Shown: positions 8,373 to 60,710 of the stretch, one piece after another
Layout of the letters: every line of letters begins with the position of its first letter
Position numbering within the stretch: the stretch's first letter is position 1
DNA from: Eukaryota sp. GEM-RC1
Taxonomy: Eukaryota
Direction: 5' to 3'
Length of the DNA: 64,000 nt
NCBI GenBank assembly: GCA_040285855.1
Contig: JAUFOQ010000004.1
Location: forward strand, 744,001 to 808,000
Translations under genes and position numbers: made by a program
The notes under the pieces: generated by a model
The model's input: only the letters and a program-made list of their open reading frames with translations
Database searches by the model: none
Told to the model about the DNA's origin: nothing

Positions 8373-8420
8373 TGCTTGGAGGGGAAATTTCAATTTTGGG
8401 CTTTGAATTTGCTGTTTATG

Positions 8421-8520
8421 AATCCGAAGATTCAATAATGCTACAGATTCACTGTAGTAAATATAGGCTATGACTATGACTATGACAAATAACTGGGTCT
8501 AACTCCTAGACCCCGCTCCA
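8421..8520 (-). ncRNA. Putative Fanzor omegaRNA (scaffold to 8441, then flank-derived guide CATTATTGAATCTTCGGATT)
   Basis: Conserved with 39421-39498 up to a sharp breakpoint; hairpins GGGTCTA-ggagt-TAGACCC and CTACAG-tgaat-CTGTAG; 5' limit unknown. Confidence 0.55.
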
Positions 8521-10020
8521 AATGATGCTCCACAATGGTCTTGATGTTGATACATGCTAACTTGTTACGATTTTAAACCTTGGCGCTACCATGACATTCT
8601 TCTCTACATTCTTGGGACTTGCATCTCAACAAAGCGTGACACTTTATCAAAGGTTTCTTCTCTCTTTTCCATGGTTTTGGATTACTGATTTCTTTGAACA
8701 CTTTAACTGCCTTCCAACAAGTCGGACACTTTGAAGACGTGTAACTCTCATCTACCAGTACAATATTGTAACCATTTCTCTTAAAGAAGTTTCTCCAACC
8801 AACACCTCCACTTGATCGGAGATGTTTTAGGTTCTGCATCTTATTACCATTGTCACCAAACATCAATACACTGTCGTTTTTATTCCATCCTTTTTCAGTC
8901 ATATTTTTCCACAACTTACTTTCTGTTTTTTGAATTTGGACGTATCTTTACATTTTTTGAATGCGCCATATCATCAAACAGTAGTAATCAAATGTTGATT
9001 CAATAACTGTAAGCTTGGAACCCACATAGTCATAGAACGTGTCATAAACGGTCGACTTTGAATTTTCTTTCGAAATTTGACTCTTCTTGTTCAGCCGTTT
9101 TTCCATCTTGGAGAATGAATTCTTTTTTCTTTCCTCTTCTGAACTTTTGATGAATCCTTGACCATCTGGACCATTCTGTCTCTGTCAATCTTAGCCACTC
9201 ATATTCTTTGTCTCTTCTTTCTCGGACTTTTTTGTTCAGGAAATGGCCTATTTACTTTCTCTGAACAAACATAGAGTAAATCTGATTTTCCAGGGTCAAT
9301 AAACACTTGTGTTTTCAATGAAAACTCTTCAATATCATAGTCTTGAACATATTCTTCTTTACTGGAGAACTTTGTACTATCTGGTTTAAATGACATTCCC
9401 ACACAGTCCTCTCTAGTTAGTTCAACACAAGCAGAGAAACCATCAGTTTTAATGGTATTGTTAAACTTATAACCTTTCTTTATAAACGAAGGATTAAAGT
9501 TGAAAAAGTAAGACCAGAATTGATTTTGTTCAGCAGGAGAATTTCAGCTTTTGTGTTCCACTCAGACATTTTTTTCTTGACGTTCACTTGTTTTGTTGAC
9601 AAAGTGGAACGTAATATTCCCCAAAGACCTTGTGTGTCTGTTTCAAAGAAGCCTAGTGTGACGTGACGAACAATCGGAATTACATTGTAAGCACTTGCTC
9701 CTTCACTTTCAAGATAGTTATCTATTTGAATCGCAGATTTCATAAAGGACTGAGGATGTTCAGGAACTGATTTTGATTTTAGTAGAGAATTAATGACTTT
9801 CTTTTTATAAACACCTTTTGAAGTTTGAATGTCAATTGACGGTGGGAGAAGTTCTGTGGTGAAGAATTTCTGCATTACATCTTTGAATAAAGTATTGTAT
9901 TTTTACAGTGGTTTTTGGAATATCATTTCTGTTACCTTCAAGAAAAACATTTTTAACTTGTCTAAGTCTCCAACGAAAAACAGATTGTTCTTTTTTTGAC
10001 ATTTTTTCTTCTTGATCAGT
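8441..10020 (-). pseudogene. Fanzor (TnpB-like RuvC nuclease), 5'-truncated decayed copy 2 of the element at 34280-39498
   Basis: Collinear with ~37830-39498: KTDGFSACVEL, VFIDPGKSDLL, LVDESYTSSKCPTC, HALLRC, NRNKLACINIK. In-frame TAA replaces the W and Q codons of copy 1. Cut at 10020 by a LINE. Confidence 0.9.
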
Positions 10021-10436
10021 TTTTTTTAAAATACACAGTTTTATTATAAATGCAATAGATCAACCAACTAAAATTTGATATCATTAAAACAACACCCGTC
10101 GCTATCAAACCTTACAACAGCGTTGTCCTCATAAATGGCACTCACTGCAAATAAAGCTTTGGAGATGATTAGGGGAACTGTTTTAAAACAGTAAAAACGA
10201 TCCGATTCAACCATAACATAAAATCAAAACGTTTGCTCATCCTATTTTTTACGATTTTTCCGAAATCGTTTAAACAATTCAATGCACTTTTTCCTAAACG
10301 TCCGTAAATTGGAAACAGCAAAAGGGCATAATTCATATTCAACATGTTTTACATGTGTTAAAGCCATCAATGGTTTCTTGTACTTATCCTGTTTAGCCTG
10401 TTCAGAAAAGTCTAAAGGAGAAGTTTCAGACGAAGC

Positions 10437-11967
10437 TAGGGATGCGAAAAAATATATTGTTATTGTATTTATTGCAATAAATATTCACAATAAATTTATT
10501 GTTGGTCAAAACAATAACAATATATTTATTGTGAGTCCCAGCAATAAATAATAATATTGCAATAATATTGTTTATTGTGGCAATAATTTTCATCACTAAA
10601 ATCATCCATCTGTTAAAAAAAATAGAGAGAATTTATTCGGCACCCAATAAGGTAACCTTCCTACAAACTATGAAATTGTAAAAACAAACAAATAATACTA
10701 AGATTAAATCCAAACGACTTCATCACCACCCGGTAAAAGATTACGTTTATCAACATTAACCTTCACACCAAACTTGTACAATTTCTCAATTAATCTAGAG
10801 AAATAGAAAGGCATATTCCGATATATGGAAAACACAATACGGTTTTTCCATTCAGCCATTCTAAACTTACGCTTCTTTTCTTTACACAATTCTTCAAAAT
10901 CCTTGAAAAATTGATCACCAGCAGGACTAATTGATCCAAAAGAGAAACATCAAAAGGTTGAAACACAAATTTGGAATATGAGTTTCTATTTAATTCTTCT
11001 ACTTGAGAGTCATACTTGGAGTGTTTGAGCTTTTCAGCAGCTGTTAACGGGTTAAAAGAAGAATCTAATATCCTACTAACACAAGATTTGTTACATACAT
11101 CTACTGTAGTAAAATCCATTAATGATTGACTCGATTTAAGCCACGGAGTATGTAGATCCCCTCTTTTTGATTCCATCTGTTTGATGTTACATGCAATTTT
11201 GCTTCCATTTGGGAGTAAGAAGATGTGTTGTGGGAGAAGTAGTCCTCTGAAGAGCTTTCACTTCAGGAAAAACAACCTAGACAAAAGAGTATAATATTTG
11301 TTTAAGTCAAATTGAAGACTGTTTGGCTTTTAAACTGCCGTAGTTCAACAAAGTCTAAACGGCAATCAAGAACTGATGACCGTAAGAGTGGGAAACATTC
11401 AGAAGAACTTTTTGCGTGGGACATACCAAGCAAGTCGAACGACTATTTAGTCGTGCTAACGTGACTACTGAAACCCTTCGCAAAAGACTATATACATCAA
11501 GTCTGGAAAAACAACTTTTTTTGAAAAAAAACGGATTTATGTGCGGAGAAAAACACATAATAAGAAAACAATAAATAAATGAACACTATTAAAACAAATT
11601 ATCAAACGAACTACCTAATTTCGAAAGGTACTAGTAGTTGCCTCCAAACAACTTGGACAAAATGGAATCAACATATCTTTTATTGATGTATAACTCTCAT
11701 CTATGGTGAAGATACTGTTCGCAAAAGTCGTAATACTAACCCTTGACTTGGTTGTTGGACAGTGAAGGAGATTTTACGGATGATGGCGAATAGACCACAA
11801 CAAAAAGGAGTCAACGGATTGCGTAGAAATATTGCCAATATATTTATTTATTTATTTGCAAACTTGACAATACCAATATTTTTATTGTTGGCCACAACAA
11901 TAACAATACATTTATTATCGTCGTGAACAATAATTTATTTAAATAAATATATTTTTTCGCATCCCTG
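10437..11967. mobile_element. Non-autonomous hAT-type TIR element
   Basis: TIR (T/C)AGGGATGCGAAAAAATATATT at both ends; 8-bp TSD GACGAAGC at 10429-10436 and 11968-11975. Confidence 0.9.
10631..11180 (-). mobile_element. 5'-truncated CRE-like LINE, family B, nested in the hAT element
   Basis: RGDL..DFTTVDVC..AAEKLKHSKY..FQPF..EWKNRIVFSIY; near-identical copy at 43211-43690. Confidence 0.75.
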
Positions 11968-14229: not shown

Positions 14230-14759
14230 ATCCAATTTTTTGGTAAACGGAGAGCAGATGTTGTTGCCCCTTCTTCTTCAGACAAATTGTTTGTTGTTGA
14301 TGTAGTGTCGGTGGATGTTTGTAAAAAGACATCTTTAAAGAACGCTTCGTCTGAAACTTCTCCTTTAGACATTTCTGAACAGGCCAAACAGGATAAGTAC
14401 AAGAAACCATTGCTAGCTTTAAAACATGTAAAACATGTTGAATACGAATTATGCCCCTTTGCTGTTTCCAATTTACGGACGTTTAGGAAAAGTGCAATGA
14501 ATTTTTTAAACGATTTCGGAAAAATCGTAAAAAAATAGGATGAACAAACGTTTTGATCATATGTTATGGTTGAATCGGATCGTTTTTACTGTTTTAAAAC
14601 AGTTCCCCTAATCATCTCCAAAGCTTTATTTGCAGTGAGTGCCATTTATGAGGACAAAGCTGTTGTAAGGTTTGATAGCGACGGGTGTTGTTTTAATGAC
14701 ATCAAATTTTAGTTGTTTGATCTATTACATTTATAATAAACTCTAATTTTTCAAAAAAA
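14230..14759 (+). mobile_element. 5'-truncated CRE-like LINE, family A, with poly(A) and TSD
   Basis: RLE C-terminal motifs; poly(A) at ~14753-14760; 13-bp TSD AGTATTTTGTCAG at 14217-14229 and 14760-14772. Confidence 0.85.
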
Positions 14760-23217: not shown

Positions 23218-23591
23218 CTTGACAATATTTAACACAATTTTTGATTGAGTGGAGAAATTAAGTGTTACTGTATGTAAGTGACTTCAACAAAACATGAGTA
23301 AGTGAGTGTACACGAGTAAAATTCAAGTGCAGCGCCACGTTAATTTTATTAGAGAGACATCACCTTGAAATACCAGAATAAAAAACGGATTTTTGTACAG
23401 AGAAAAACACACAGCAAGAAAACAATCAAATAAATAAAGACTATTAAAAATTAAAACCAGAATTGGAATCAATTAATTTGTACTGATACAAATAACACAA
23501 TTAAATCAAATCAAATCTTGCACATAGCCTATTTTGATACTTCTAGTGTTGAACCATCACTTATAGGATGCAAGTTTATTAGAAAATGAAG

Positions 23592-24963
23592 CTACAACAA
23601 CTCAAGAACACAACTATGATTAGCCAAATACCCAACAAGATGGTAGTTATCATTATCTAAAGAACTAATTTCTCTTGTACAATTAAATCCAGGGTCTGAC
23701 TCTTTTGTAACAGTAATTGAATTATTCACAAGATTAATTGTGATTTCAATGATTTCATTTCGGTTCCATTTTCCATTAGGGGTTCCTGACGGATAGAAGT
23801 TATTCCTATGACTGTAAAAACAATGAGCATTTGGCTTTGAGTAAACACCACTACAATCAAACTCTTTTCTAGGAATAATTCCAATCATTAGTTGATTAGA
23901 AACAGACGAAGGAGTGCCATTCCTAGCCCTAACTTTATAGACATTTCCTGTAAGAAGAGGAGTTTCTGAAAGAACATTGGACCAGCCTGAACCATTGTGA
24001 GTAACAGTTTTTCCTCCATTTGAAATATTTAAATTTTGACTTTTGATATCAGATGAAAAGGAAAGAACTGAAGAATCAACAGGTTTTGCACATGTATCTT
24101 GTTTTTCAACATTTTCCTTCAATTTAAATATTTCTTCATCTTTTTGCTTAATTAATTCAGTTGCTTCAACCAATTGTTCTTTTAACGTCAAATTTTCAGA
24201 AATTATTGACTCGAAAAATATCGGACGTAATTGTTTAAAGTGAAACTTCATCAAAACTTCTTCCAAATTTGAAATATTCTCAAGAGGATTTAAAAACAGC
24301 CCATCCCAGTCTTTAAAAAGTCAACAGGTTAACGTCAACAAGGGTCAGAATTTGAGATAATTCTTCAGAATTTATAGTTTCTGATTTAACTGAAGCCACA
24401 AGTGACTTAAAAAACCATTTGAAAGAACTTGAAGAAGTGCAAAATTCGAGTAAACTTTGGAGAAAGACAAATGGGAAGACAAATTCAGATTTTTCACAAA
24501 TATTTTCAATTTCTGTAAGAAAATCTCCAACAAATTTTAATCCTCTCAAGTCTTCTTGTTCAACACACTTTGTCAAGAACTTGCTGCACCAGTCCCAATT
24601 GGTCATTTTTGAAGGGAGAATCTCCATAAGAGTAGTTTTAAGATGATCACACTGGAAGTAAGTAGCAAGGTAGAAAATATCATAGACGTTGGAAGAAGTG
24701 AGGTCGATGGTGTGACCAAAGAAGGACGAGATGAAGGCGGAGAAAGACTCAAATGATATGGGCAAATGCGAGAAGTCCAAAGGGTTCTCAAAGCGATCTC
24801 CAAACTCCATAAACCAAAGAGAGAAGAAGTACTGAGAGTTGGAAGCAAGGACTGACTTAATGACAGAGAAGGACTCATCATTAAAGATAATGGTTTGATC
24901 ATGGAGATCAGTGTTGGATTGGAGTGTAGAGAGAGTGTTGGGTGAGGTGGATGTGAGTGACAT
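23592..24963 (-). CDS. BTB/POZ - coiled coil - SPRY protein, copy 2 (one frameshift in a homopolymer at ~24315)
   Basis: ORFs 24313..25011 and 23592..24266; same domains as copy 1. Confidence 0.8.
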
Positions 24964-25935
24964 TGAAGGAGAGATTTGAATTTTGTATATTTCTATCAAT
25001 TCATGGTGCAATGAGATTGCCTAGTCGACAGTTAGAGATGATGTCATCAATGTAATGCTTAGTATGAGGGTTAGATTTGCCATACAATGATTAAATTTTA
25101 GCAATATATACATACGTTCTGTCACAAACTGAATCTGCATATAACACAACTTTATGATATGGTATGGCTTGTCAAATTCTAAACTAGTTCGGCTTCGGCT
25201 TGAGCCATTTGAGTAAGCCAAGCCAAATTTGGATATGAATTGGTCAAGTCGATCGTCTTACGGCTTGAGCCGAACCGTTTGACAGCTCTAACATAACATT
25301 ATTAAAAGCTATTTTATGATTAATGAAGTACGACCTGATCTCGATCTTCCTTTGGATGATTGAAGCATTTTATCACTTCAAAAAGTTTAGACAACAGCTG
25401 GTGGATTTATTATTGAAATTTTGTTCAATCATTAGATTTACATTTGTATAGAACATTATAAACTTCACAACCAGAAGCATATTCTTCACTCTGCTTGTTT
25501 CACGACCACGATGGTATGTGACAGTAGTCGGTGGTCTTTGTTATCGATCTGATGTCTACCACCACTGATGCTACGAGGGCTTAAAAATCATATGCATCGT
25601 AATTCTTATCTTTGTCAAAACAACCTAGAAATCAAACAGAACATTCATCTGTACTAAATCTCACGGCAACTGTTTGCTTATACAAATAATTAAAGTAGCT
25701 ACTGAATTATTAACAAGAATTGCTATAGAGTGTTAGTGTAATGGCGTATTAGCCTATTTGTACCTTTATGAATTCACTTTTCTTTATTCATATGACTAAG
25801 ACCAACAAGAGGGTGTAAAGATAATGCCATCCAAATGTGCCGACACTTTTGATCGGAACGGTTGTCCATTTTTTCCTCAAAGAGAATTTGTTGCTACAAG
25901 TAAAAATTGTTACACTGATATTGCAACGTCTTGAT

Positions 25936-29301: not shown

Positions 29302-30660
29302 TTAAAAGCCCATTCTACTACCGTGTAACGATTTAATTGACTCTTTTGTTTCACTGTCAATAGGGTTGCCGAAAAGAAGAATTGATGAAACAGATGTGTT
29401 CACCTTTAAAGCCTCTGCAAGTGCCACAGCACCCTCATTTCCAATAGAGTTTTGATATAGATAAATCGTAGATAGAGCCGAATTCACCTTTATAGCCTCT
29501 GCAAGTGCCACAGCGCCCTCATTTCCAATAGAGTTTTGGTAAAGATACATCGTAGAAACCGAGGAATTCACCTTTAATGCCTCTGCAATCGCAACAGCTC
29601 CTTCCTCTCCAATGGGGTTTCTGTCCAAACAGATCTCTGAAACAGATGAAGTCACCTTCAGAGCTTCAGCAACTAGTTTAACATCCTCAGGACCAATAGA
29701 CATGTTACTTAGATTGACTTCAATGATTGTATTATTTATCATTGAATCACAACAATTCTTCAATGAGGAACCTGGGGTTAAACCAGGGGTTAGAGAACTG
29801 AGGTTAATGGAGGAAGAACCTGGGTGGAAGGTCAAACCACTTGTTGTGGGTTGACCAAGAAAGGCACCAGTACCGAAAGTTCCAGCAGTAGTACTGGGAG
29901 GATTGTTGCCAAAAGAACTACTAGTACCGAAGGAAACAGACTGTGGGGGAGATGATTTGCCAAAGGAACCAGAACCGAAAGTTCCAGCAGTAGTACTGGG
30001 AGGATTGTTGCCAAAAGAACTACTAGTACCGAAGGAAACAGACTGTGGGGGAGATGATTTGCCAAAGGAACCAGAACCGAAAGTTCCAGCAGTAGTACTG
30101 GGAGGATTGGTGCCAAAAGAACTACTAGTACCGAAGGAAACAGACTGTGGGGTTGATGGTTTGCCAAAGGAACCAGAACCGAAAGTTCCAGCAGTAGTAC
30201 TGGGAGGATTGGTGCCAAAAGAACTACTAGTACCGAAGGAAACAGACTGTGGGGTTGATGGTTTGCCAAAGGAACCAGTACCGAAAGTTCCAGCAGTAGT
30301 GCTGGGAGGATTGGTACCAAAAGAACTACTAGTACCAAAGGAAAGAGACTGTGGGGGAGATGGTTTACCAAAGGAACCAGCACTGAAAGTTCCAGTGGTA
30401 GTACTGGGAGGATTGTTAACGACAGAACTACTAGTACCAAATGAAACAGACTCTGAGGCAGAAGAGGGTTCAAGTGGTTTCGGATCTTGGGGGGAAAACT
30501 TTGGAACAAAAAAGGCATGTTTCTTCAAAGGAGAAGATACATGGGATCTTAAAGGTTCTGAACGGTGAGTCACTCGAAAACAATCATCGCATAGGTCAGA
30601 ATCACATTCAGCGCAATTAACAGTTGAAGGAGTTTGCTTACATTCGATGCATTGAGACAT
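29302..30660 (-). CDS. B-box zinc finger + FG-rich tandem repeats + ribonuclease-inhibitor-type LRRs
   Basis: CIEC..CAECDSDLCDDCFRVTH..H; 34-aa repeats; 28-aa LRRs such as LYQNSIGNEGAVALAEALKVN. Confidence 0.85.
   Translation of the reverse strand: MSQCIECKQTPSTVNCAECDSDLCDDCFRVTHRSEPLRSHVSSPLKKHAFFVPKFSPQDPKPLEPSSASESVSFGTSSSVVNNPPSTTTGTFSAGSFGKPSPPQSLSFGTSSSFGTNPPSTTAGTFGTGSFGKPSTPQSVSFGTSSSFGTNPPSTTAGTFGSGSFGKPSTPQSVSFGTSSSFGTNPPSTTAGTFGSGSFGKSSPPQSVSFGTSSSFGNNPPSTTAGTFGSGSFGKSSPPQSVSFGTSSSFGNNPPSTTAGTFGTGAFLGQPTTSGLTFHPGSSSINLSSLTPGLTPGSSLKNCCDSMINNTIIEVNLSNMSIGPEDVKLVAEALKVTSSVSEICLDRNPIGEEGAVAIAEALKVNSSVSTMYLYQNSIGNEGAVALAEAIKVNSALSTIYLYQNSIGNEGAVALAEALKVNTSVSSILLFGNPIDSETKESIKSLHGSRMGF
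29855..30452 (-). repeat. 102-bp coding tandem repeat, ~6 units
   Basis: Unit SVSFGTSSSFGTNPPSTTAGTFGSGSFGKPSTPQ. Confidence 0.95.
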
Positions 30661-31060
30661 TTCGAAAGAAGATGAAGAGTTATCAATATGACAGTCGATC
30701 AAAAGGAAAACTTGGTCTGCCGTTCAGAACTAGAAGTTATTTATTGTAGTTATTTGCTGGTGACGTGTTTAAAAGCAGTTGGTGAAGTAAAGAAAGCAGA
30801 TGAAGTTTGTTCATACTATTTGAGCGAGTATTATTTGAGCGTATCGTTTGACACTAAATGAATGTTCAGCAAAGTAGTTTATTTTGTATGGATAGAAGGA
30901 GAGAGTAGCTATTTTACGGGAAACTCGCTTGTCAAGACGGACAGAAGTGGGAAATTGTAAATGATTGACTTGAAGTGTTGAGGAAAGTTCTTAAAATACA
31001 TCCTCTGCTTCTTTCTTCATCAATCACAGTGACGTAAACCACACAGATAAAACTAAATAG

Positions 31061-32698
31061 TCATGTTAATAATTTAGAATTTTGTTCCTGTATGTGTTTT
31101 TTGATTTTTCTTTTTTTGGGTGGCTCTGGAAGTGACTGAACCTCGGGGATTCTCCGCTCATTGCAATTGAAAATAGCCGGAGCAACTGCAGAAGTGGAAG
31201 GTTGGGGCGGAAGCAAGGTTCTTCGTTCTCCAGTCCACAGGAAACTGATATCACCTCCATCATAACCAACTAGCATCATTGGATCTATCATTTCAACAGT
31301 TCTCCTTACTCTCCAACAGAATGCCTCATTGTTCACAAGATGAGGTTTAGCCTTGACAACATCCTTAAGCTCTTGTAGAGTAGGTCTCTTGTTTCTTTTA
31401 GGATCTCTAATTATCGCTCTTAATCCTTGTCTGTTTAACTTGTCAGCTGCCCTCGCAACTCCCATAGCAAAGTCCATGTTTGATTTGTAGTTAGTCAAGA
31501 AAGGGGAAGGTTTGGGATCAGGTTTAGGTTTAATCACAGGCCATTCAGATTCAATAGACAAGTGTTCTTCAGTTTTAGTAATGTGATTATTGTAGAGAGT
31601 ATCAGTGGTAAGCAGTAGACGAACTGTGGAGGCTGAGAATTGGTAGTTAGGTATCTTGCGTAGTTTGTCGGCAGCTTCCTTTTTAAACCTATCAAATGTG
31701 GATAACTGACCTTGATTGAGGTCTGATTGGGTGATTCGATGGAGAAGAACAAGAATAAAACCAAGGAAACGAGCAATGAACAGCGGGTCACGTAATTGAA
31801 AGAAGAAAAGGTTCGGTTCAGGTTTGATTACCTCTACTGGATCTTCAATTAATGATTGAGAATCAGATGTCAAATGAGGTAAGATTTGGTCAATGTTTCT
31901 AAAAACAGCTGATATATCAGACATAACAGTGGGAAGATCATTAACGTAAATAGAACTGGAATCACCAAAGGTGTAGAGCCTGAGAAAGCACAGGTAAATG
32001 TCTTTTAGAACAAAACATTCACCATCTGCTGATAAAACTTCCGTGTCGGTTACAAAAAGCCCAAGATCTTGCCATGAGCGGTAGAGAGTATCGTCCTGGA
32101 GATCAAGATCATCAAGGTCAGGAAAGAGACCAGCTAGGGTGATGGGAGAAGAGGATTTGGAAGAGACGTGTAGAGGCGGAGTAATGGCAGTGACAATGAT
32201 GAGGATAGCAAGAAGACCATCTTCAGCTGAGCAAGGAGGAAGTGGGGAGTCTTGTTTCATGGCTTGAACTGAGGAAGTAGATAGAGTTACTTGAGGGAGA
32301 GGGCTTAGACGACGAACTACACGGTTCATTGTGAGACAAACGACTGCGTATAAGTATTGGCGGAATTCTGCTTCTAGTGAATAGATAAGGGACTTGATTA
32401 GTGGCAATTGGTCTTTGAGGAAACATAGAATATACGGAACTGAATGGATGTGGATTGTTGAAGTAATATCATGAATAGTGGTTGTGAAGATTCTGAATGC
32501 AGATACCACGGTTCCTCTTGCTGGAGAAGAGGAGAAGAAGCGAGAAGTTGTAGCAAAAGAAAGTGCCAGTATTTTGTAGGAGAGTAGGACATCGCTATGG
32601 TTCACTGTGTCTGGTGAAAGTTGAATTAAGAAGGGAAGAACCATGGCACGAAATCTATCAGAAGTGTCGGGTACATCAGAAAGAGGAAGAGAAGCCAC
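31061..32698 (-). CDS. THOC1: THO complex subunit 1 (Hpr1)-like, divergent; start uncertain
   Basis: LFFFQLRDPLFIARFL, FSASTVRLLLTTD, RPTLQE and VNNEAFCWR recall the THOC1 motifs LQLSD..FR, F...V..IL..E and NN..YGWR. Confidence 0.5.
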   Translation of the reverse strand: MASLPLSDVPDTSDRFRAMVLPFLIQLSPDTVNHSDVLLSYKILALSFATTSRFFSSSPARGTVVSAFRIFTTTIHDITSTIHIHSVPYILCFLKDQLPLIKSLIYSLEAEFRQYLYAVVCLTMNRVVRRLSPLPQVTLSTSSVQAMKQDSPLPPCSAEDGLLAILIIVTAITPPLHVSSKSSSPITLAGLFPDLDDLDLQDDTLYRSWQDLGLFVTDTEVLSADGECFVLKDIYLCFLRLYTFGDSSSIYVNDLPTVMSDISAVFRNIDQILPHLTSDSQSLIEDPVEVIKPEPNLFFFQLRDPLFIARFLGFILVLLHRITQSDLNQGQLSTFDRFKKEAADKLRKIPNYQFSASTVRLLLTTDTLYNNHITKTEEHLSIESEWPVIKPKPDPKPSPFLTNYKSNMDFAMGVARAADKLNRQGLRAIIRDPKRNKRPTLQELKDVVKAKPHLVNNEAFCWRVRRTVEMIDPMMLVGYDGGDISFLWTGERRTLLPPQPSTSAVAPAIFNCNERRIPEVQSLPEPPKKRKIKKHIQEQNSKLLT

Positions 32699-33539
32699 GT
32701 CTTCGCAGTAATTTTAGGAGTGCAGTAATTTTATATACGGACATGAAAAACTTTTACGAACAAATCTGCTTTGGGAGTGTTTAGTGGATTACTATTCAGC
32801 TTCTACTAACGATTACAAATCTGAATTAGACCAAATTCAACGTCGTCGGCAGACTGTACATGATTCTCAAGTATCAGATGAGATTGTTGATGTCAATGCT
32901 GAAAGTTTAGGGAAGTGTTCCCCAAATTTGGGGAAAATGTAGCAGATCAGTAGTTCTTGTTTTGTTTTAATTTTTTGTTTTATAAATGGATTTAATCTTT
33001 GTATTGTTTGTTTGTTTTTGCACTCACTTTCATCGTTTTTTCCATCATACAATGGCCTGTACCCTAGATCAAGATTTTAGTGACTGTCATTACAAATGTT
33101 GTCATTACAAATGTTGAACAAAATCAACATCTATGTGTGGAAAATGTAGCAGTAATTGTTATGTTTTGATTTATTTATAAGGCATTGCGGTGTTCAACAA
33201 AAATAAATGTAAATAGGGACGTGTTGGAGTGAGTATCACCATGATGTGTCCAATTTCTTGCATTGGAATCAAAACAGTCCCAATCTTTCATTCAAAAGTG
33301 TGAAGATGAGAAGAGTTTTGACAGAGTGCATATGACGGTGGAGTTAGCTGTAGTGGTTCGTAACACTGGGAAGCTGGGAAGAAGCTAAATAAACACAGTG
33401 AAAGATCACGATTGAAAGGATCTTCACCTTTTAAGATCATAGGGAGGTGTGTTCATGAAGAGAAGACCAGTACAACATATGATGAAGATGCCATAATGTC
33501 AAGTTGTCAGTGTCAACATCAGCTATAAATAGTTGAAAT

Positions 33540-34214
33540 CAGGGATGTTAAAAAATATATTTTTATTTTATTTATTGCAATAAATATTATTTATTTATTT
33601 ATTGTCAGCAGCTGGATCAACAATATATTTATTGTCTCAAATCGCAATATGCAATAATATTGCAATATATTGCAATATTGTGACAATATATTTTCATTGC
33701 AAATATCGAACTTTCTTCATTTCAATTCTTACAGTACTGTCTCAATTTTGTAACCAAGGATACAAACAGTTGATCATACCATCATGTAACAAAATTGAAA
33801 GATTGTTCAGTCGAGCAAAGCTTACTACTGGCACTCTTCGATCACGTTTACACCCTTCAAGCCTTGAGAAACAGTTACTTTTACTCTACAACTCCCAACT
33901 TTGGAATGAAGAGACTGATCGAAGAATTCTCCTCCACAATCCTTTTCAAGATTTGTTGCACTAAGATGGGGATGTAATAGATGAAGAATAGATTATACTA
34001 CGATAGCAATTTTTCACTGATTGATCATAAACCCGGTTTTTCTACATTATACCAGTACTAAAGTTGCAGCAGATAATAATGTCAATAAATATATTTATTT
34101 ATTGTGATGCCCGACAATATCAATATATCTATTGCAAGCCCACACAATATCAATATATTTATTGCAAGCCCACACAATATTTTATTTATTTAAATATATT
34201 TTTTAACATCCCTG
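33540..34214 (+). mobile_element. Non-autonomous hAT element with a dimerization-domain remnant
   Basis: 23-bp TIR CAGGGATGTTAAAAAATATATTT; 8-bp TSD GTTGAAAT at 33532-33539 and 34215-34222; PSCNKIERLFSRAKL..RSRLHPSSLEKQL. Confidence 0.93.
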
Positions 34215-34222
34215 GTTGAAAT

Positions 34223-37200
34223 CTTTTTGACCTGTATCTCATTGCCTTTTTCGCTTCCAAACACTGCAAAGTGTTTCGAATGATAGTAACAGGATTCAGT
34301 TACTCGCACTATCACTCGTCGTTTTTCAACAGTCGTTTTAATCAACAGTCATCTCAGTTTTGTCATGACCTAACCACGGACGGAGGCATAGAGTCCAATC
34401 CAGGACCTCCTCTTACAGATGACCTTAGAGATGAGCAACTGAGACCCGTTTTTGCACCAAACGTAGACAATATCGAGACGTTAGAGCCCAACGTCTGGGT
34501 TAATGATGATGTCATCGACTTATACGGTGATTTTCTTACAAAAAGCAGCAAATGTTGTCAGTACTTTCCAATCAATGACCTGCTTGGTGCTTCTGGTGTT
34601 TATGATTTTCAACTATTGTTAAAAAAAATTCGAATACCTAATAACTTCAATGAATGTTTGTGTTCCGAAGAAACGATTCATATTCATGCCAATCAACGAT
34701 GGCCTTGTCGGTAAAACACCGACTCATTGGACACTTCTAATTTGCGATATTAAGATTAGACGACTTTTTTCAATCGATTCAACGTATACTGAAGAGGAAC
34801 ACTTCAAACATCTGGCGAATACAATTCGAGCTTCTCGCAATGAAAAAGTAGTCCAACGTTTACAGCAAGATTTGTTTAATGACGCACAGTATTTGTATAT
34901 GGATAAACTAGTTGTAAAGCAAGAGCAAACTGAAAACGATTGTGGACCTTTTATTCTATTGTACATTCAAAAGTTTGTTACCTTAACAGACTCATATATT
35001 GATTGTTCATCTATCGATTTTAAGGAAATTTTAACCAAACTTGTAACTAGCCAAGACTATGATGCTTTAAAAATGAGGAAAGAAGTTTTGACTCATATTT
35101 CGACTACTCAATCAGCAGAGAGGGCTAAACGTGCTAGAGAAATCTTAAACAAATTCTTTTCCGTTTATTCGACACCTTCTCAACAGCGTCGTAAACCCAA
35201 AAACCAGATGCAAGAAAGAAAAAAGGTCCTAAAACTAAACAACCGGCCAAAAAAAGAAAGAAGACTGCTAATACTTCTCAATCTCCCGGTCCATTGTGCC
35301 ATATCACTGAAAGTAAATCTTGCTAGGTTCAAGGGACTAAAAACATGGAACTCGCCGTTTGATTTATCTGAACCTTCTACACTGATATCATCTACTCATG
35401 AAATTCCAGATCCTAACAAACTGACAAAAACTCAATTACAAGAGGTTTCAGAAGCAATCAAATCGTTGTCATCTGAAGAATCGATTGCAGAAGAATGTGT
35501 CAATTGGTACTCTCGTCATTTGATGGACATATACAAAGTTGATTTCAATGCCTTTGTAGCTTCTGGATCACTTCAATCATATTTAGTTGATGAAACTCAA
35601 TCTCTCCACGAGTTTTTCATGAACAAGATTCTTCAGACAGATTCCAGATATCTTTTTGTTCCAATAAATGATGCAATGACTGGTTTACATTGGGGTTTGA
35701 TTGTAATTGACAAAAATGATCTACAAGTAATATTTCTCGATCCTCTTTATAATGTTGAAGATCACAGGCAGGATGTTGATAAAAATTTAAATGAAATTGA
35801 CTCTTATTTGAATCAAGATATTTCAAAAATACATGAAATTCTTCATCAACTCCAGTTTCAGCTCATTATTGTCCCAGTGCTACAGAAACAAACAGCAAAT
35901 GATTGTGGAGTATATGTTCTTCAGTTTATGCGAGGACTTATAGAACTTCTGACTTCAAACCAATTCACAGATCAATCTCTTCTCCATGCTGCTGATAGAA
36001 TGATACAACAACCTATCAATACTAGGGAGAGTAGACAAGAAATAAAAGTGTACCTTCAATCTCTACAACCTCCTACAAGTAGAAACCGCATATCTGGACA
36101 AACCAAAATTAAGCGAACATGCAAATATCCGGTGAAAAAAACTGACAAAGTTGCTCAAAAAAAAGTCAAAAAGGATTATACGAAAGCCCAGTGATTCTGA
36201 TATAGAGGTTCCAAATGTGACTCATAAAGAATTTCTAAATAGTTTACCAGGTGATTTGTCTAACCGACAAAGAGACGTCGCTTGAAGTTGCACATGATAC
36301 AACACGCACTTCAAGAAGCTGAACAATTGTTTCAGGATTCTTTGATTCGTCCAAAGTTAGAGACTTTAGCTCCAATAGATTTGACAACTCCTAAAATAAA
36401 CGTTGCTGCTTGTGAGAAAACTGAAACCACAAAGACACCAGCTAAGAGTACAACAAAAGTTGGCAAATCCAAAAAGTCAACAACCAAACCAAAGGCAAGT
36501 GGTAAAACTAATGCTACCAAGAGTCTTAAACCTCCTAAGAAACAAATGATTGAGTTTCATTGTAATTCTGAATTACCAGAAGACTCTAACTCTTGTTCAA
36601 TATTGTCGTTTGATATTGAAACAAGAGAAGTTGATCAATTGCCTGTTAAGAAACTTACACAGAAGTTGAATGATCAAAGACATGAACAAAATGAAGTTTT
36701 AAAAAACCAAAGTGATTCAGAAAGAGAAGCTTGGATTGAAAAACAACAAGTGTTTATGATTTCTGGAGTTTTCGGTCATTTTATTAAGGATGAGTTTTAC
36801 CTTCAAGAAAGCTTCGTTGCGACTTCAGAAGAATCAACTTCCTTTTCAAAAGTTGAAAATCCAACTGATTGTCATAGCCTTTTCTTCTTTGAAGATGAAA
36901 AACAGTTACTAGAGTTTTTTGTCAATTATTTGACTGATAAAAATCCATCTGTTTTAACTGGATTTAACATTACTAATTTTGATAATGTTGTTCTAGACAA
37001 TAGAATTGATGCATTTGGAATAGACTTTCCAGAACCAATGCAAGATGATACCACAAAATCACATTTGTCACCTTTATGGCAACGTGTTTGTACTGAATGG
37101 GCTGGTAGAACTGTCTGTGATTCTTACCTCTATGCTAAACAATTCATTGCTACAAAATGTTCAAGATCACTAAGATCACTAAGTTGGTTTTTATTAAATG

Positions 37201-39498
37201 AATCAAAAGGGCATCTCCATGACAAATTCGAACACTTGTTACCTATTGATTGTGTTAGTAGACGACCTCAAGAAGTTCTAAACTATTGTTTCCAAAGACA
37301 GTGTATTAGCATTGAAGTTGTTTTTATTATTTCAATCAAATAAAATAGTTCGTCCCACTTTTGTAACACATAAGACTACACTGAAGTCTATTGTAAAACA
37401 TACAGGACTGGAATTATTGTTGAATTATTATGCTCTATTGGTTCATAAGCTACGGATGCACACTTCTTATTGTTTGAAGCTGTTTTTATTGCATTTAAAT
37501 AAGAATGAGCTTCCACTACCATTAATTTCAAGGAAAGAGGTTGAACACATTCAAACGTTGCTGAAGGAAATCTCTGCTGATCGTCATAAGATTAAACTAA
37601 ACAATGGAAATCCAACAATTAATGACGACTTGAGAACATTTGTTACAAATCAATACAAACAAGTAATGATGGACAATGGTGGTATTCCACAATTTCCAGC
37701 TGCATATTCTCCACGACTTATGGCAATGGTAGGTGAAACAATCAAAACAAATTTGAACACCAATATTAAAATGCGATATCCTCAGTACATTGACAAATTT
37801 ATTAATGTTTGGTTTGAAAAGAATAGTGTTGAAGAAGAAATGTCTAAAAAAGAAAAGTCTGTATTTCGTTGGAGATTGAGACAAGTAAAGAATGTTTTTC
37901 TTCAAAGGAATAGAAACGATATTCCAACGACCACTGAAGAAATACAGGAGTTTATTGAACAATCTAATGCAGAAATTCTTGAAGATGACAGTGAGAAAAG
38001 CTTAAGCATTGCAGATAAAATGCAACTTTTAAGGCAAAGCCACGACACTGTTCTAAAACTGTTCCAAGATAATGTCTGCATTGATATCCTCTTCCCACCA
38101 ACAATTAAAATTCAAAAGTCAAATGGTGATTATGAAGACAAACAGATTGATTCTCTACTTAAAGCAGTACATGAACATCCACAATCGTTTATTAAATCAG
38201 CAATACAGATAAATAACTTTCTTGAAGAGGATGAAGCCAGTACTTACAATATAATTCCGATTGTTCGACACGTGGTTCCAGGCTTCTTTGGAAGTAGACA
38301 CACAAGGTCTTTGGGGAATATTACGTTCCACATTAACCAATCATCAGGTTAAAGAGAAAAAAAACAGATCTGAGTGGAATTCAATTGAGGAAAATTAGGC
38401 ACATGTCTCCTGCCGAACAAAATCAATTCTGGTCATACTTTGTCAATTTTAATCGTCCATTTATAAAGAAAGGCTATAAGTTTAACAATTCTATTAAAAC
38501 TGATGGTTTCTCTGCTTGTGTTGAACTTACCAGAGAGGACTGTGTGGGAATGTCGTTCAAACCAGACAGCGCAAAGTTCTCCAGTACTGATGAATATGTT
38601 CAAGACTATGATATTGAAGAGTTTACATTGAAAACAAAAGTTTACATTGATCCTGGCAAGAAGGATTTACTCTACTTCTGTTCAGAAAAAATAAGAAAGC
38701 CAGAAAATTTAGCCCGTGAAATGAGAAACAAAGAATACGAGTGGCTAAGATTGACAGAAACAGAATGGTCGAGATTGTCCAGAGTCCATCAAAAGTTTAG
38801 AAGGGAAAAGAAAAAAGAATTTATTCTCCGAGATGAAAAAACGGTTGAACAAGAAGAGTCAACATTATCCAAAGAAAATTCAAAGTCAACCGTGTATGAA
38901 ACCTTCTATGACTATGTGGGTTCCAAACTGACAGTTATTGAATCAACATTTGATTACTACTGTTTGATGATATGGCGCATTCAAAAATGCAAAGATATGT
39001 CCATATTCAAAAAACAAAAAGTAAGTTGTTGAAAAATATGACTGCAAAAGGATGGAATAAAAATGACTGTGTATTGATGTTTGGTGACAATGGTAATAAG
39101 AGGCAGAACCTAAAACACCTCCGATCAAGTAGAGGTGTGATGTGGAGAAACTTCTTTAAGAGAAATGGTTACAATATTGTTCTCGTAGATGAGAGTTACA
39201 CGTCTTCAAAGTGTCCTACTTGTTGGGGGCCAGTCAAAGTGTTTATGGAAGTTGACAATCCTCGACCCAAGACACAAGAAGAGAAGCCTACGGTGAAGTT
39301 ACATGCGTTGTTGAGATGTCAATCTGAGAAGTGTAGAGAAGAATGTGATGACAAAGACAAAGTGTGGAATCGTAACAAGTTAGCGTGTATCAACATCAAA
39401 GCTATTGTGGAGCATCATTTGGAGCGGGGTCTAGGAGTTAGACCCAGTTATTTGTCATAGTCATAGTTATAGACTATATTTACTACGTGAATCCGCAG
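34223..39498 (+). mobile_element. Fanzor-encoding element; right end defined, left end not determined, no transposase recognised
   Basis: Homology with the copy at 8441-10020 stops abruptly after GTGAATC(C/T)G(C/T)AG at 39498. Confidence 0.7.
34280..39460 (+). CDS. Multidomain Fanzor polyprotein (~1700 aa once frameshifts are bridged): 2A-like peptide, 2x Ulp1/SENP protease, PolB-type DEDDy exonuclease, Fanzor/TnpB RuvC
   Basis: Six same-strand ORFs joined by single-base shifts. DLTTDGGIESNPGP; PIND..HW..DS..Q..NDCG twice; SFDIET / TGFNITNFD / YCxKD; KTDG, YIDPG, VDESYTSSKCPTC, WNRN..ACINI, RPSYLS*. Confidence 0.85.
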
Positions 39499-39518
39499 TT
39501 ATCTGAGTAATCATCTTT
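39421..39518 (+). ncRNA. Putative Fanzor omegaRNA overlapping the ORF end (scaffold to 39498; guide TTATCTGAGTAATCATCTTT)
   Basis: Hairpin 39427-39445 (GGGTCTA/TAGACCC), stem ATAGTC/GACTAT and terminal stem CTACG/CGCAG; non-coding conservation for 38 nt past the stop in both copies. Confidence 0.6.
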
Positions 39519-39862
39519 TTACAGAAACCACTTCATGCAGTAGTTGTCATTATCATTCACAACACCTGTTGTCTTCATTACATACTATAGCGAAGGTCTA
39601 GGATTCAGTTTAGTAAAGACGTACATACATCTATGAATTATTGATACCAACTAAGAAATTCGATTCGATTTTTATTACAGTTTGAAAGACAAATGAGTAA
39701 GTTACACTGATCACAAACGAAGAAACTAAGTGCTAGAAATTACACATATAATAATTACCATAGCTGTTAAATGGTGGGATGTTTCAAGTAAGATCAAACT
39801 AACTCTTTGGATGACATTGGATCTGCCCAAATTCTATCGTTGAGAGGAATTGCAAAGAAGAT

Positions 39863-40807
39863 CAGTTTATGGAACAAAAACACTAAAATAAACATAAATA
39901 CTAGAATTCAATATCATCAAAGCAACAATCATTGCCATTAAAACACACATCAGATTTTTCTTCATAAAAAACACTGAGAGCTAATAGAGCTTTTGAAATC
40001 ATGATAGGAATTGTTTTAAATATTGTAAAAACAATACGATTCAACCAAAATTTGAAATCAAATTTCTTGTTCATTCTTTTTTTGACCACTTTCTCAAAAT
40101 CAGAGAGAAAACAAAGAGCATCTCTACCAAGTCGACCATAAATTGAAATTGCAAAAGGACATAATTTGTACTCAACATGTCTAATATGTTTGAGAGCAGT
40201 CAGTGGTTCATCATATTTGTTTCTCTTGTATTGTTCTGAAGAATTCAGTGGAGAAACTTCATTTTTAGCATCCTTGAATGCACTTTTTTTGCAAACATCC
40301 ACAGTAATCACATAAACAACGGTTAGTTCATCATTAGCTGATGGAACTATAACATCAGCTCTTCGTTTACCAAAAGTCTTATCAGAATCACTATTTTTGG
40401 AAATTATTGATTTCCAGTGATCTCAACAGTGGCTCAACGAAAGATTCGATTTTGTAGGACTTACACATAGCATGAATTTGATCTCTGACAGCATCATGAA
40501 TACAAGTTCTATAAGTAATGAAACGATTACAACTCAAAAGGTGAGAAAAAGTAACTAATTTACCACATTTGCATTGAAGATCATTGGGTAAATTAGAGGG
40601 CCACAAGAAACATCGAAGTCTGAATGTTGTAGTCCATTGATGATCATTCAACAACAAACCATAAATCTGAGGAATTTGGTTAATCAAAGCAACTGAAGAA
40701 CTGTCCTTCAAATCGATTAAAAAATTTGCGACAGCTGGATTTTTTTCTTTGGCCGAGCCAAGTCGAATTTTAAAATCCAAACATTCAAAATGTTTTAAAA
40801 GGTGTTT
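39863..40807 (-). mobile_element. 5'-truncated CRE-like non-LTR retrotransposon (zinc knuckle + restriction-like endonuclease)
   Basis: CKCG..HLLSC, IHDAVRD, EP, RADV, TVDVC, K..KY, PFAISIYGRLG; 13-bp TSD TTGCAAAGAAGAT at 39850-39862 and 40808-40820. Confidence 0.88.
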
Positions 40808-40887
40808 TTGCAAAGAAGATGAATACTACTAGTACAGTAGTACAGTTCATACTTGTAGTATGAAAACGGATTTCAGAATTTAACTTC

Positions 40888-49505: not shown

Positions 49506-50360
49506 CTACTCAGCAAAGGAAACCGTACAAACAAGATAAATATCTTCAGTGCTATCTTCAACGTCATGGAAAGTAACATCATAAGACTTACCAAACGGCA
49601 GCGCTACTAAAAAATTAGCAATACAAAGTCCAACATCCAAAGTCTTTGGGTAATTTGGTGTTTCCCTACCATCGAAAAAGAACGCAACTTGATTATCCTT
49701 AGTTACAAAACGCCAGGACTGTCTGTTAATGGCTGAAGGTGATATCCTGGCTGCTTCCAAAGCAGCGGTCATCCAAGGAAGTTCCATTGTTCTTTCATCT
49801 GATAAAATCAGTGTAGACATGGGTTTTCTCTTCGCTGAACCAGCCATTGTTGAAAGTACTCGCTCACCAAAAGGTTTTGTATCGGTGCAGTATCCAATTG
49901 GAGTGACAGCTAATACGTCCTCGTTTTCAGCGAGATCGTAATATCGTTTAATATTGTCTTTGTACCAAGTTCCTGATATGATACAAGTACCAAGAGATTG
50001 GGCGGTACAGTATAAGACAAAAGCTTCAAGAACGATACCAGCTTTGACACGGGAGAAAGATTGGTTATTGTCGACTATGAGGGTGGCAAATAAGGAAGCA
50101 TTAGCACGGGCAAAACTGGCAAAGATCCCTTTGAAGACAGGAAGATCAACTCTGGCTTCAGAGATTTCTATTCTAATGCCTTCATATGGAGTGAAACTAG
50201 CTGCAAACTCTTTTAGAGAATCAACAACTGATCGAGAAACAATTCGAGAAGTGTCGTAAGATCGACGTGACTTGCGTAAGGGAATGGCCTTTTGAAGATC
50301 GTCATGATGAGGGAAGGTTAACATAAAGCCAAAGAAATAAAGTAAAAAAACAATTAACAT
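49506..50360 (-). CDS. Nitroreductase family protein (two-module, TM1586-like)
   Basis: AIPLRKSRRSY, LGTCIISG, TPIGY, KRKPM, ALEAARISPSAINRQSWRF, LDVGLCIANF; start may be the ATG at 50324. Confidence 0.85.
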   Translation of the reverse strand: MLIVFLLYFFGFMLTFPHHDDLQKAIPLRKSRRSYDTSRIVSRSVVDSLKEFAASFTPYEGIRIEISEARVDLPVFKGIFASFARANASLFATLIVDNNQSFSRVKAGIVLEAFVLYCTAQSLGTCIISGTWYKDNIKRYYDLAENEDVLAVTPIGYCTDTKPFGERVLSTMAGSAKRKPMSTLILSDERTMELPWMTAALEAARISPSAINRQSWRFVTKDNQVAFFFDGRETPNYPKTLDVGLCIANFLVALPFGKSYDVTFHDVEDSTEDIYLVCTVSFAE

Positions 50361-55967: not shown

Positions 55968-57025
55968 TTACAATCTGGTCACTCTGATCAAAGCAGATCC
56001 CAAGACCTCATCAGCTGCTCCATAGAAAACCATGAACTCATTAACACCAACCTGCTTCATGCCCTCGATAAATACAACATTTGGAACCAAGCCTTGAGGA
56101 TTCCTTTCCCAAGCTAACTCAGGTGTTAAAATGGGGACTTCAGACCTTTGAAGGATGTGTGAAGGATCTGTCCCATTGAGAATGAGATAACCTGCGTTGT
56201 ACTGGAGATCATAGCCAGGTCGTACGGAAGGAAATCCTCTACGAGCAGAGTTGTAAATGAACAAATAGTTGCCATCAGACAGAAGAAGCGGTGGAGGACC
56301 AGACTCAACAAGTTCAGAATCAAAATGGTCATTGCGTACTGTCAGAAAGTCATCAATGGTGGTCTTATAACTTATCAAATCATCGGAAACTGCAAAGAAA
56401 GCTTCTCATCCCCCCAGATCAGGTAATGTGGGGAATCTGCTACATCATCTCTTAACAACAGAGCCCCAGACTTTGACCATTTGTTAGTGACAACTGGCCC
56501 ATGTCTCTTCCAGGATTCCTTTATCAAGGGGGTAGTAGTAGTAGCGAGAGCTAGTCTGGAAGTGAGACTTGTTGGTGTCTCTTCAACAGCAGAGTAGAAC
56601 ATGTAGTAAGTTCGATCTTTTGTTCTATACACAATCCGAGGGTCTTCAACTCCATAGTTCTCTTCAGGACCAGACGCTTCAAAGACAACATTTCTGTTGG
56701 TAATCGGAGACAGTCTTATATTACTTATGTTTTCTTCAAGCTTTCCACTTTTCGAAGTGGAGAAGGATGCAGTGACTACAGATTGACCAACTTCATAGGG
56801 AGGTTTAGTGACATTCTGGGATCGTACAAACAGAACATCAATGCTCTCAGTAGGAGATGTATATACTGGGGCATAAGAAGGGTTATACGAAAGCGTAAAG
56901 ACAGACTGAATATCGAGGGGACGTTGCTGGTTGACTCTTTTCAGGGTAACATCATACAGAGGAACTGTGGCCAGACTCACAGAGCACAGAGCCATATACA
57001 TCAAAACCCGAACATCGAATCTCAT
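55968..57025 (-). CDS. Glycoside hydrolase family 130-like (beta-mannoside-active), secreted; break near 56380-56400
   Basis: YGVEDPRIVY, WSKSGA, LVESGPPP, YNSA, GLVPNVVFIEG, YGAAD. Confidence 0.85.
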
Positions 57026-58001
57026 TGAGAGTGAGTGATTTAACTCAATTAATGAACTTATGTTAACCTGTCAAAATGAAACCAATGAAACCGAAACCAA
57101 ACTAAAACTTCTTCAAAACGGATTGGTTGGCCATTTTCAGCTTTGTGACTGATTTTAGTGGACAATGATCATCATTTTCGTCATTACAATACGTTTAGAC
57201 ATGGAAACAATGACTACCCAATCATCAGCAGGTTTTAAAACCATTGAATGATTTACAGCTTTTATGCAAAACAAATCATTTTTACAGCATTTTTACAGCA
57301 AATCGTTCCTAGCTCTTCGTTGTTCGCTAAAACATCATTAATGATGTCAAATTTCTCAATGTGTCACTGCCTTTTAAAAAAAATCTTTTAAAATCTTTAT
57401 TATTATTTTTTTCTTGAAACCCTTTCTCTCCTGCTTGATTGCCAATGGTATCCCACTAGTATTATCAGTAGATGCACGTCAGTCATAGCTTTTATTTCAC
57501 ATAACAATAAACATCCATCATCGTCTGTTCACACTGCACGGAACAAGCCCTCGATTTAGTGCCTAACTCGATTTAGTGCCGGTCCAAACAGGGGCACTAA
57601 ACCGAGGGAAGACTGTATCTACATTACTATCCTGCTATAACTTCAGCAGGGACAGAATATTTCTGTTGTAATTAATCTGAGTCATAAATTTTCGACTATA
57701 TATACATTTTTTAAAACAATTCATGTTATGATCTCCAAAGCTGTTTTAACTCTACGTTTATTCACAGAAAAATTTTATGTGATATTCAGAGGCAATAACT
57801 GTTGCTTTAATGATATTCAGTTCTAGTTTATATTCCTTTCTTTTTGTAAACCCACGTTTTAAGGAATAGTGTTTACCATGTGCAGCATTGAACTAATTAA
57901 ACCGATTTCTTATGTACTAAAGAGATGATACTGTATTTTGATTAAATCTAAAGCAATCTAATAGATTTTGTAAATTACAATCATCACTAATTACATTAAT
58001 C

Positions 58002-60276: not shown

Positions 60277-60710
60277 GTTTTGAGTTTCGTGAATGATGAA
60301 ACAGTTTGTGAATCACTGGTAGTACCGGTATCACTTGAAAATATTTAACATAATATTTATTGAAGTGTTACCGTATGTGAACGACTTCAAAAAAACATGA
60401 GTAACTGTGTTTACAAGAGTAAAATTCAAGTGCAGCACCACTATAGTGTTGATCTTATTAGAGTGACATCACCTTTAAATACCAGAATAAAAAACGGATT
60501 TATGTACAGAGAAAAACACACAGCAAGAATACAACAAAAAATTAAAGACTATTAAAAATTAAAACCAGAATTGGAATCAATTAATTTGTACTGATAAAAA
60601 TAACACAATTAATTCAAATCAAATCTTGCACATAGCCTGTTTTACTACCTCTAGTATTGAACCATCACTTCACTTACACTTATAGAATGCAAGTTTATTA
60701 GAAGATGAAG

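Follow-up and report, generated by a model that had tools for sequence, protein, structure and literature searches.

Two Ulp1/SENP-type protease domains at the front of an exonuclease-Fanzor1 frame in Eukaryota sp. GEM-RC1

The locus analyzed here raises the question of why two Ulp1/SENP-type (peptidase family C48) protease domains are encoded next to each other in Eukaryota sp. GEM-RC1, and which task they serve. They lie in a window of 64,000 nucleotides (GenBank assembly GCA_040285855.1, contig JAUFOQ010000004.1, positions 744,001 to 808,000 of the forward strand; coordinates below are those of the window), and a preliminary description had proposed counter-defence or self-processing as their role. 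Our analysis places both domains at the front of a mobile-element frame that also encodes an exonuclease and the likely RNA-guided nuclease Fanzor1, with a defined domain order, catalytic residues in place and a family of related copies. The sequence evidence suggests, with a probability of roughly 0.55, that these front modules are tethered proteases which free host proteins of NEDD8 or SUMO at the binding site of the nuclease.

Both C48 domains are real. The motifs quoted in the preliminary description were found in place (WVNDD at 34496-34510 and PIND at 34689 in domain 1, PIND at 35661 in domain 2), and the His/Asp/Cys triad and the oxyanion Gln were located in both domains. Each domain alone passed the Pfam Peptidase_C48 cut-off of 20.7 bits, with 32.5 bits (E = 1e-7) and 59.4 bits (E = 5.8e-16), and two stretches of the 523-codon frame 34623-36194 matched the same profile (E = 1.3e-21). 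All residues of the motif set reported for domain 1 were present, but WVNDDVI and FMPIND lie in different frames in this copy. The split is a one-base shift in a run of eight A residues (34621-34628), and the sister gene model P0026 (P-numbers designate the 72 proteins collected in this study) keeps both motifs in one frame. Two Trp residues in the lid of such proteases clamp the Gly-Gly of the substrate. Domain 1 has both, and in domain 2 ESIAEEC replaces the W-x-x-D of most relatives, so that the first lid Trp is absent.

An AlphaFold model of domain 2 (predicted local distance difference test score 92.5) has the clan CE fold; domain 1 was modelled only via P0026, at lower confidence. Among 48,161 solved chains the best match to the domain 2 model was SENP8/NEDP1 (Z 18.1, root-mean-square deviation 3.5 Å over 191 residues, 16% identity), followed at lower Z by NopD (16.7), XopD (15.9), SENP3 (15.6), Ulp1 (15.0), I7L (14.3), pS273R (12.2) and adenain (10.1). 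In Foldseek searches, SUMO proteases led by E-value and SENP8 by template modelling (TM) score. SENP8 was also the best protease match for P0007 and P0014, and the likeness to SENP8/DEN1 pointed out earlier was thus borne out. With SENP8/NEDP1/DEN1 (PDB 2bkq, 1xt9) and Ulp1/SENP1-7 the domains share the clan CE fold, the His-Asp-Cys triad and the PIND...HW pattern. They differ in sequence (16-19% identity), in being tandem and tethered, in the lost lid Trp of domain 2 and, in the GEM-RC1 types, in a shorter Gln-to-Cys spacing, which is five residues in both window domains versus six in the SENP8-like P0050 and P0051. At 16-19% identity, the substrate is not readable from the sequence; NEDD8 may be placed slightly ahead of SUMO as the modifier that is cut.

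The C48 domains belong to a mobile-element polyprotein, in agreement with the preliminary description. Three-frame translation of 34280-39460 gave one continuous coding path of approximately 1,700 codons, along which a StopGo/2A motif, two C48 domains, a basic linker, a PolB-type DEDDy exonuclease, a complete Fanzor1 and, at the right end, a candidate omegaRNA follow one another (Table 1). The same domain order was found in unbroken TZLM3-RCL gene models of 1571-1905 amino acids: P0002 (1846 amino acids) and P0007 (1905) contain two C48 domains, exonuclease and Fanzor in one model, and P0014 (1571) contains one C48 domain followed by exonuclease and Fanzor. P0026 covers 34337-37128 with 854 of 904 residues identical (94.5%) and contains StopGo, both proteases and the exonuclease in one model. 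When the piece 37282-38349 was used as a query, five of 2,412 candidate proteins matched, and each of them came from Eukaryota sp. GEM-RC1 or TZLM3-RCL; it was this Fanzor query that brought up the fused forms. Both organisms are named Skoliomonas in PMC11316075, and the host is likely a skoliomonad metamonad. The model P0009 (RCL1_001071) joins a DEAH-type helicase to linker, exonuclease and Fanzor; either a genuine fusion or the insertion of the element into a host gene may lie behind it.

The exonuclease matched PF03104 (E = 8.6e-17), and its ExoI D-x-E, ExoII Nx3D and ExoIII Yx3D motifs were all present; ExoIII spans the frame break at ~37293 in the window copy and is whole in P0001 and P0005. 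Its closest solved relative is DNA polymerase delta (Pol delta), as determined via P0007 and P0014. Matches of P0007 in the PDB were SpuFz1 (E = 2e-30), PpFz1 (E = 1.6e-25), SENP8, Ulp1 and Pol delta, and its Fanzor homology begins within approximately 10 residues of the ExoIII Asp. Homology of the WED, REC, RuvC and zinc finger parts to solved Fanzor1 was detected via P0007 and P0014, which align to 36270-39452 at ~48%; the TnpB-type zinc finger profile PF07282 gave E = 1e-4 in the window frame, below the cut-off. The features by which Fanzor1 is recognized (PMC10711439) were all found: TDG in WED, DPG in RuvC1 and the alternative Glu, six residues before the zinc finger. The third RuvC catalytic position is Asn (WNRNK at 39365). 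A dead nuclease was considered and dropped, since Asn at this position is active in GtFz1, and it raises activity in SpuFz1 (PMC11423790). Between the two Fanzor copies in the window, the ratio of nonsynonymous to synonymous substitution rates (dN/dS) was 0.24 over 439 codons; the Fanzor part is under purifying selection. The likeness to Fanzor1 (SpuFz1, PDB 8gkh; PpFz1, 9cf0; GtFz1) comprises the full WED-REC-RuvC-zinc finger body with TDG, DPG and alternative Glu, and for GtFz1 also the D-E-N triad and a candidate right-end RNA overlapping the stop region. The differences are approximately 1,000 extra N-terminal residues here, with StopGo, one or two C48 domains and the exonuclease, and terminal inverted repeats and a transposase, which were not found here.

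The representative search gave 23 matches. Of those that were looked up by name or align closely, the top 12 belong to the same family; weaker matches included SENP8-like proteins and a reverse transcriptase-bearing element with two C48 domains. None of 3,664 candidates matched when the protease frame was used to search for longer proteins, and exact-pattern scans found no relative on viral or metagenome contigs. The Atlas held generic C48 and PolB-exonuclease clusters only, and BFVD distant viral C48 proteins only (best E = 7e-5). A C48 phylogeny, for which the preliminary description had called, was computed from 41 rows without P0049 and several fragments. The GEM-RC1 domains formed two supported clades, and window domains 1 and 2 fell into different ones; neither the root nor the RCL domains could be placed because of long branches. 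The tree did not decide between a grouping with SENP8 and one with SUMO proteases. Because domains 1 and 2 are 23% identical and fall into separate well-supported clades, they are not a recent tandem duplication. Domain pairings differ in other copies, and many subfamilies with shuffled C48 modules occur in GEM-RC1.

His, Gln and Cys were kept in 13 of 14 C48 domain types, one second domain having Ser and His instead, and P0014 has Asn in place of Asp. The lid Trp was lost in three of four second-position domains versus none of the ten others, and the second C48 domain may often decay towards a binding module. A GEM-RC1 subfamily (P0041-P0043, P0058, P0066, P0071) carries StopGo and C48 with a degenerate exonuclease, and some of its second C48 domains have Ser for Cys.

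Upstream of the proteases, DLTTDG-GIESNPGP holds the sole NPGP of all six frames (expectation for the octamer, 1.4e-4). It fits (D/G/C/N)(V/I)ExNPGP with a known upstream class and is a predicted StopGo on the strength of the motif, although the DLTxDG class usually goes with a residue other than the Gly seen here at p12. In PMC12846837 the family form, DLTxDG-DIESNPGP, falls under upstream class 4, and the motif alone is insufficient for ribosomal skipping (PMC3708506). The motif or a near variant was found in 19 of the 72 collected proteins, each time directly ahead of the first C48 domain. The remainder are mostly fragments or unrelated; P0025, P0032 and P0034 reach upstream and yet have no such motif. 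Several models carry tandem repeats upstream of StopGo, which differ between subfamilies. The closest parallel to this arrangement is the N-terminal 2A of the non-LTR (long terminal repeat) retrotransposons L1Tc, Ingi, CR1 and L2 (PMC3708506), where the motif likewise belongs to a single long frame and lies ~30-80 residues after its start. There, an apurinic/apyrimidinic endonuclease (APE) domain follows, whereas here a protease follows and the element is without reverse transcriptase.

The preliminary description suggested that the proteases could cut their own polyprotein. They would then work like the viral clan CE enzymes adenain, pS273R and I7L and would free an exonuclease-Fanzor unit. 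The proteases are N-terminal and precede a long disordered linker, their fold is common to viral processing proteases, and P0004, P0017 and P0018 (~940 amino acids) are modelled as exonuclease-Fanzor only. The cleavage sites do not support this proposal. P0026 (956 amino acids) is without any Gly-Gly, and no di-Gly, adenain-type or AG site was common to the long proteins scanned: the Gly-Gly before the exonuclease in P0002 and P0007 was not found in P0014, P0020 and P0026, adenain-type sites occurred in two of eight long proteins, and an AG site in one of eight. The ~940-amino-acid models begin at an internal Met that falls within the exonuclease, the fold is nearer to SENP8 than to the viral processing enzymes, and the protease comes as one domain or two, of which the second can be dead; a processing enzyme needs neither. 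Self-processing is thus considered improbable.

At the right end, the two window copies share 64 identical bases from 39404, and their divergence starts at ~39494-39499. The last 18 codons have no synonymous change at 13.3 sites, versus a proportion of synonymous differences (pS) of 0.355 overall (P ~0.003); against the adjoining segment (21/77 synonymous) the value is ~0.015 by our own arithmetic, and in both comparisons the region was picked after looking. A 7-bp hairpin is retained in both copies; the SL1 hairpin of three Fanzor1 RNAs is likewise 7 bp long, and the GtFz1 RNA overlaps the last codons of its gene. No match was found in Rfam across 32500-40000, and the guide candidates had no second match within the window. 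A host WD40 gene (7776-8498) on the same strand has its likely start ~80 bases beyond the end of copy 2, so that the guide of this copy would be the 5' region of that gene. A fixed right end with a variable or truncated left end is also known from the 5'-truncated Fanzor1 families CRe-1/2/3 and MCi-2 (PMC3627910), for which no accessory enzymes are reported; the Helitron ends and target duplications of those families are not demonstrable here.

The left end of the element is hidden, because a hAT-like miniature inverted-repeat transposable element (MITE) sits just 5' of the frame. Candidates for a target duplication consisted of 8- and 5-base matches only and were taken as chance. A second hAT-like element (10438-11967), of the same terminal repeat family and with an 8-bp duplication (GACGAAGC), is inserted into a retrotransposon fragment. 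Fragments at 39901-40825 (minus strand), 10020-10436 and 14344-14759, together with shorter pieces, resemble the 3' restriction-like endonuclease (RLE) end of a non-LTR retrotransposon; the likeness is in a motif, and they had no Pfam match. One starts ~400 bases beyond the right end of the element, and another abuts the 5' end of copy 2. It is possible that the RLE-like element is the mobiliser, or the donor of the StopGo module.

A frameshift-aware alignment to P0026, P0001 and P0007 identified nine frame events in the window copy, namely eight single-base shifts (six in A runs and two in doubled bases) and one 82-nt stretch, which is missing from the P0024 and P0026 models and holds the only stop codon of the path. 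Single-copy host genes of the window also show apparent breaks at base runs (WD40 twice, GH130, FAP206 twice, condensin), as judged by frame continuity without homologue alignments. The assemblies of the relatives named in PMC11316075 were built from Illumina-corrected Nanopore R9 reads, and most of the breaks are probably assembly errors. Short GT-AG introns do exist in host genes; introns were rejected as the cause of the single-base breaks, since relatives run straight through them.

The nine events, together with the 5' MITE, the changed StopGo Asp and the lost lid Trp, could also indicate that the window copy is a pseudogene and its proteases captured passengers without a role. The aligned path of ~1,700 codons has no nonsense codon except the one in the 82-nt stretch, and five C48 residues (His, Trp, Asp, Asp, Gly) are invariant in all 22 aligned rows at 17-35% identity between subfamilies. 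It may be that this particular copy is dead, although we lean towards the opposite; that the proteases of the family are idle is unlikely, and the passenger explanation as a whole appears very improbable. Conserved catalytic residues across two species, the dN/dS value and the failure to find a transposase or terminal repeats would equally fit a tamed family, whose copies the host uses as RNA-guided modifiers of chromatin or repair and whose movement has ceased. Against this stand several marks of mobile DNA. Models that are near-identical or partial are scattered by the dozen over many contigs, one copy is truncated at its 5' end yet intact at its right end, and the tandem repeats upstream of StopGo are subfamily-specific. 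We regard domestication as highly unlikely.

Table 1. Coordinates of the element, its parts and related features in the window
Feature	Position	Strand	Remarks
hAT-like MITE	33540..34214	.	Terminal inverted repeats and 8-bp target duplication GTTGAAAT; insertion just 5' of the frame
Short leader, first ATG to StopGo	34280..34366	+	84% identity to P0037 residues 3-53
StopGo/2A motif DLTTDG-GIESNPG/P (slash, separation point)	34367..34408	+	Sister copies carry DIESNPGP
C48 protease domain 1	34466..35111	+	Lid Trp 34496, His 34725, Asp 34776, Gln 34926, Cys 34941; one-base shift ~34622
Lys/Arg-rich linker	35112..35414	+	One-base shift ~35199, offset by the 82-nt stretch missing from the P0024/P0026 models
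C48 protease domain 2	35415..36071	+	His 35688, Asp 35739, Gln 35889, Cys 35904; Ser replaces lid Trp
Basic linker, predicted disordered	36072..36596	+	One conserved helical segment ~36210-36350, its sequence common to P0007, P0014 and P0020; frame shifts ~36159, ~36268
PolB-type DEDDy 3'-5' exonuclease	36597..37320	+	ExoI D36612/E36618, ExoII D36981, ExoIII Y37284/D37297; frame shift ~37293
Fanzor1	37345..39460	+	TDG 38499, RuvC1 DPG 38649, alternative Glu 39191, C4 zinc finger, RuvC3 Asn 39374
Fanzor1 frame shifts	~38290, ~38393, ~38982	+	Frameshift-aware alignment
Candidate omegaRNA scaffold and element right end	39404..39499	+	7-bp hairpin 39427-39445
Second Fanzor copy, 5'-truncated, decayed	8440..10011	-	83% identity, two stop codons, right end same as main copy
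Three BTB-domain genes	5000-6427, 23218-25020, 60334-62191 (-)		~89% identical, each broken at a different place

De-neddylation of cullin ligases had been another suggestion, with BTB-SPRY adaptors in the window as the example. The proteases would then act in trans as a counter-defence, against ligases that would otherwise destroy the proteins of the element. The SENP8/NEDP1 likeness, the three BTB genes and a rapid shuffling and turnover of modules that resembles host conflict are in its favour. The BTB domain was confirmed in these genes, but they lie ~9-28 kb away, are unlinked repeats without a SPRY profile match, and nothing ties them to the element. The proteases are moreover fused to a DNA-targeting enzyme rather than free, and the main cullin de-neddylase is the COP9 signalosome (CSN), not SENP8. 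We give this proposal little credence, and the example from the window was not sustained. By eye, the C-terminal part of the BTB genes is SPRY-like, without a Pfam match.

Other genes in the window include a B-box protein (29302-30723, minus strand) with six 102-nt repeats rich in Phe-Gly, which are nucleoporin-like, and 84-nt leucine-rich repeats. A nitroreductase (49506-50360, minus strand) and a GH130 phosphorylase (55968-57070, minus strand) belong to families common in bacteria and are possible gene transfers.

The reading favoured here, that of proteases tethered to the nuclease, can be placed in the following scheme. StopGo would release a leader of ~42 residues, so that the mature chain starts at the protease. 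The right end of the element would supply the omegaRNA that this chain loads, and the flank would serve as guide. The chain may then cut the element-free allele at the distance from the target-adjacent motif (TAM) known from SpuFz1, whose cleavage lies 16-21 nt past the TAM. A homing model has been put forward for OMEGA nucleases (PMC13565253). A SpuFz1-type cut would leave a short tail, unmatched in the donor, on the TAM side of the break. The fused Pol-delta-like exonuclease could remove this non-homologous 3' tail, a step for which Pol delta of yeast is the precedent, whereupon host repair would copy the element in. If copying began at the right flank and ended early, 5'-truncated copies would result, such as those found here and in CRe-1/2/3. 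The proteases might strip ubiquitin-like marks from silencing or repair proteins at the cut site, a role that has been guessed for the Ulp1 domains of Ginger1; for Ulp1 and OTU domains carried by Ginger1, Mutator and Helitron elements, an effect on repair signalling has been suggested (PMC2836005). The removal of SUMO or NEDD8 at the targeted locus, already mentioned in the preliminary description, is our best guess for their function.

The wider proposal that the element is a natural programmable all-in-one editor, that is, a Fanzor1 that takes its own end-trimming exonuclease and NEDD8/SUMO-removing enzymes to a site chosen by RNA, spreads by homing-type copying from its right end and needs no transposase, is put forward as doubtful. 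If true, such an editor would be an autonomous, Fanzor-only class of mobile element.

Several observations weigh against tethered proteases and the scheme built on them. The family profile scored SENP8 and SENP2 nearly equally (51.7 and 51.3 bits). One GEM-RC1 subfamily is without exonuclease motifs, and its continuation into Fanzor reached only E = 0.5-1.4. The whole relatives are automatic gene models, which may bridge breaks with false introns, and P0002 is without two short stretches that P0007 has. The fold of the candidate omegaRNA had z = -2.99 in copy 1 versus -0.80 in copy 2, for two copies with edges set after looking, and no compensatory (double-sided) pair changes were found in its hairpin between the two copies. 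The StopGo Asp is changed to Gly in the window copy, which has ~1.7 frame events per kb compared with roughly 0.4 per kb in host genes (hand count); because this rate is several times that of the host, some breaks may be real decay. A transposase, a left end, terminal repeats and a target duplication were all not found in the window, where the left end lies under the MITE.

Tandem Ulp1 domains alone would be ordinary. C48 domains within mobile-element proteins are known from the Ulp1-bearing transposons Ginger1 and Mutator/MULE (Mutator-like element; PMC2836005), and the RLE retrotransposon P0052, which bears a reverse transcriptase, likewise carries a pair of them, with Ser in place of Cys in the second. 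In those elements the partner of C48 is a DDE transposase or a reverse transcriptase. The partner here is a Fanzor nuclease together with an exonuclease, and a mobiliser was not found. A Fanzor fused to a protease, exonuclease or 2A was not found in the literature searched, and supplementary Fanzor catalogues (PMC10432273, PMC10530073) or Repbase could list such fusions; term look-ups gave no such wording in the extracts of PMC3627910, PMC10711439, PMC10530073 and PMC10432273, and those of PMC6338049, PMC12338488 and PMC10288648 held nothing on Fanzor fusions.

For the role of Fanzors in their hosts, helper enzymes in one chain with the nuclease show what a eukaryotic RNA-guided nuclease may need, namely trimming of breaks and removal of ubiquitin-like marks. 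The long-standing guess that Ulp1 domains of transposons act on repair or silencing becomes directly testable, because a protease of this kind could be aimed with a guide. Whole predicted copies are available from cultured, free-living protists, and the D-E-N Fanzor, fused as it is to an exonuclease, is a candidate tool for editing.

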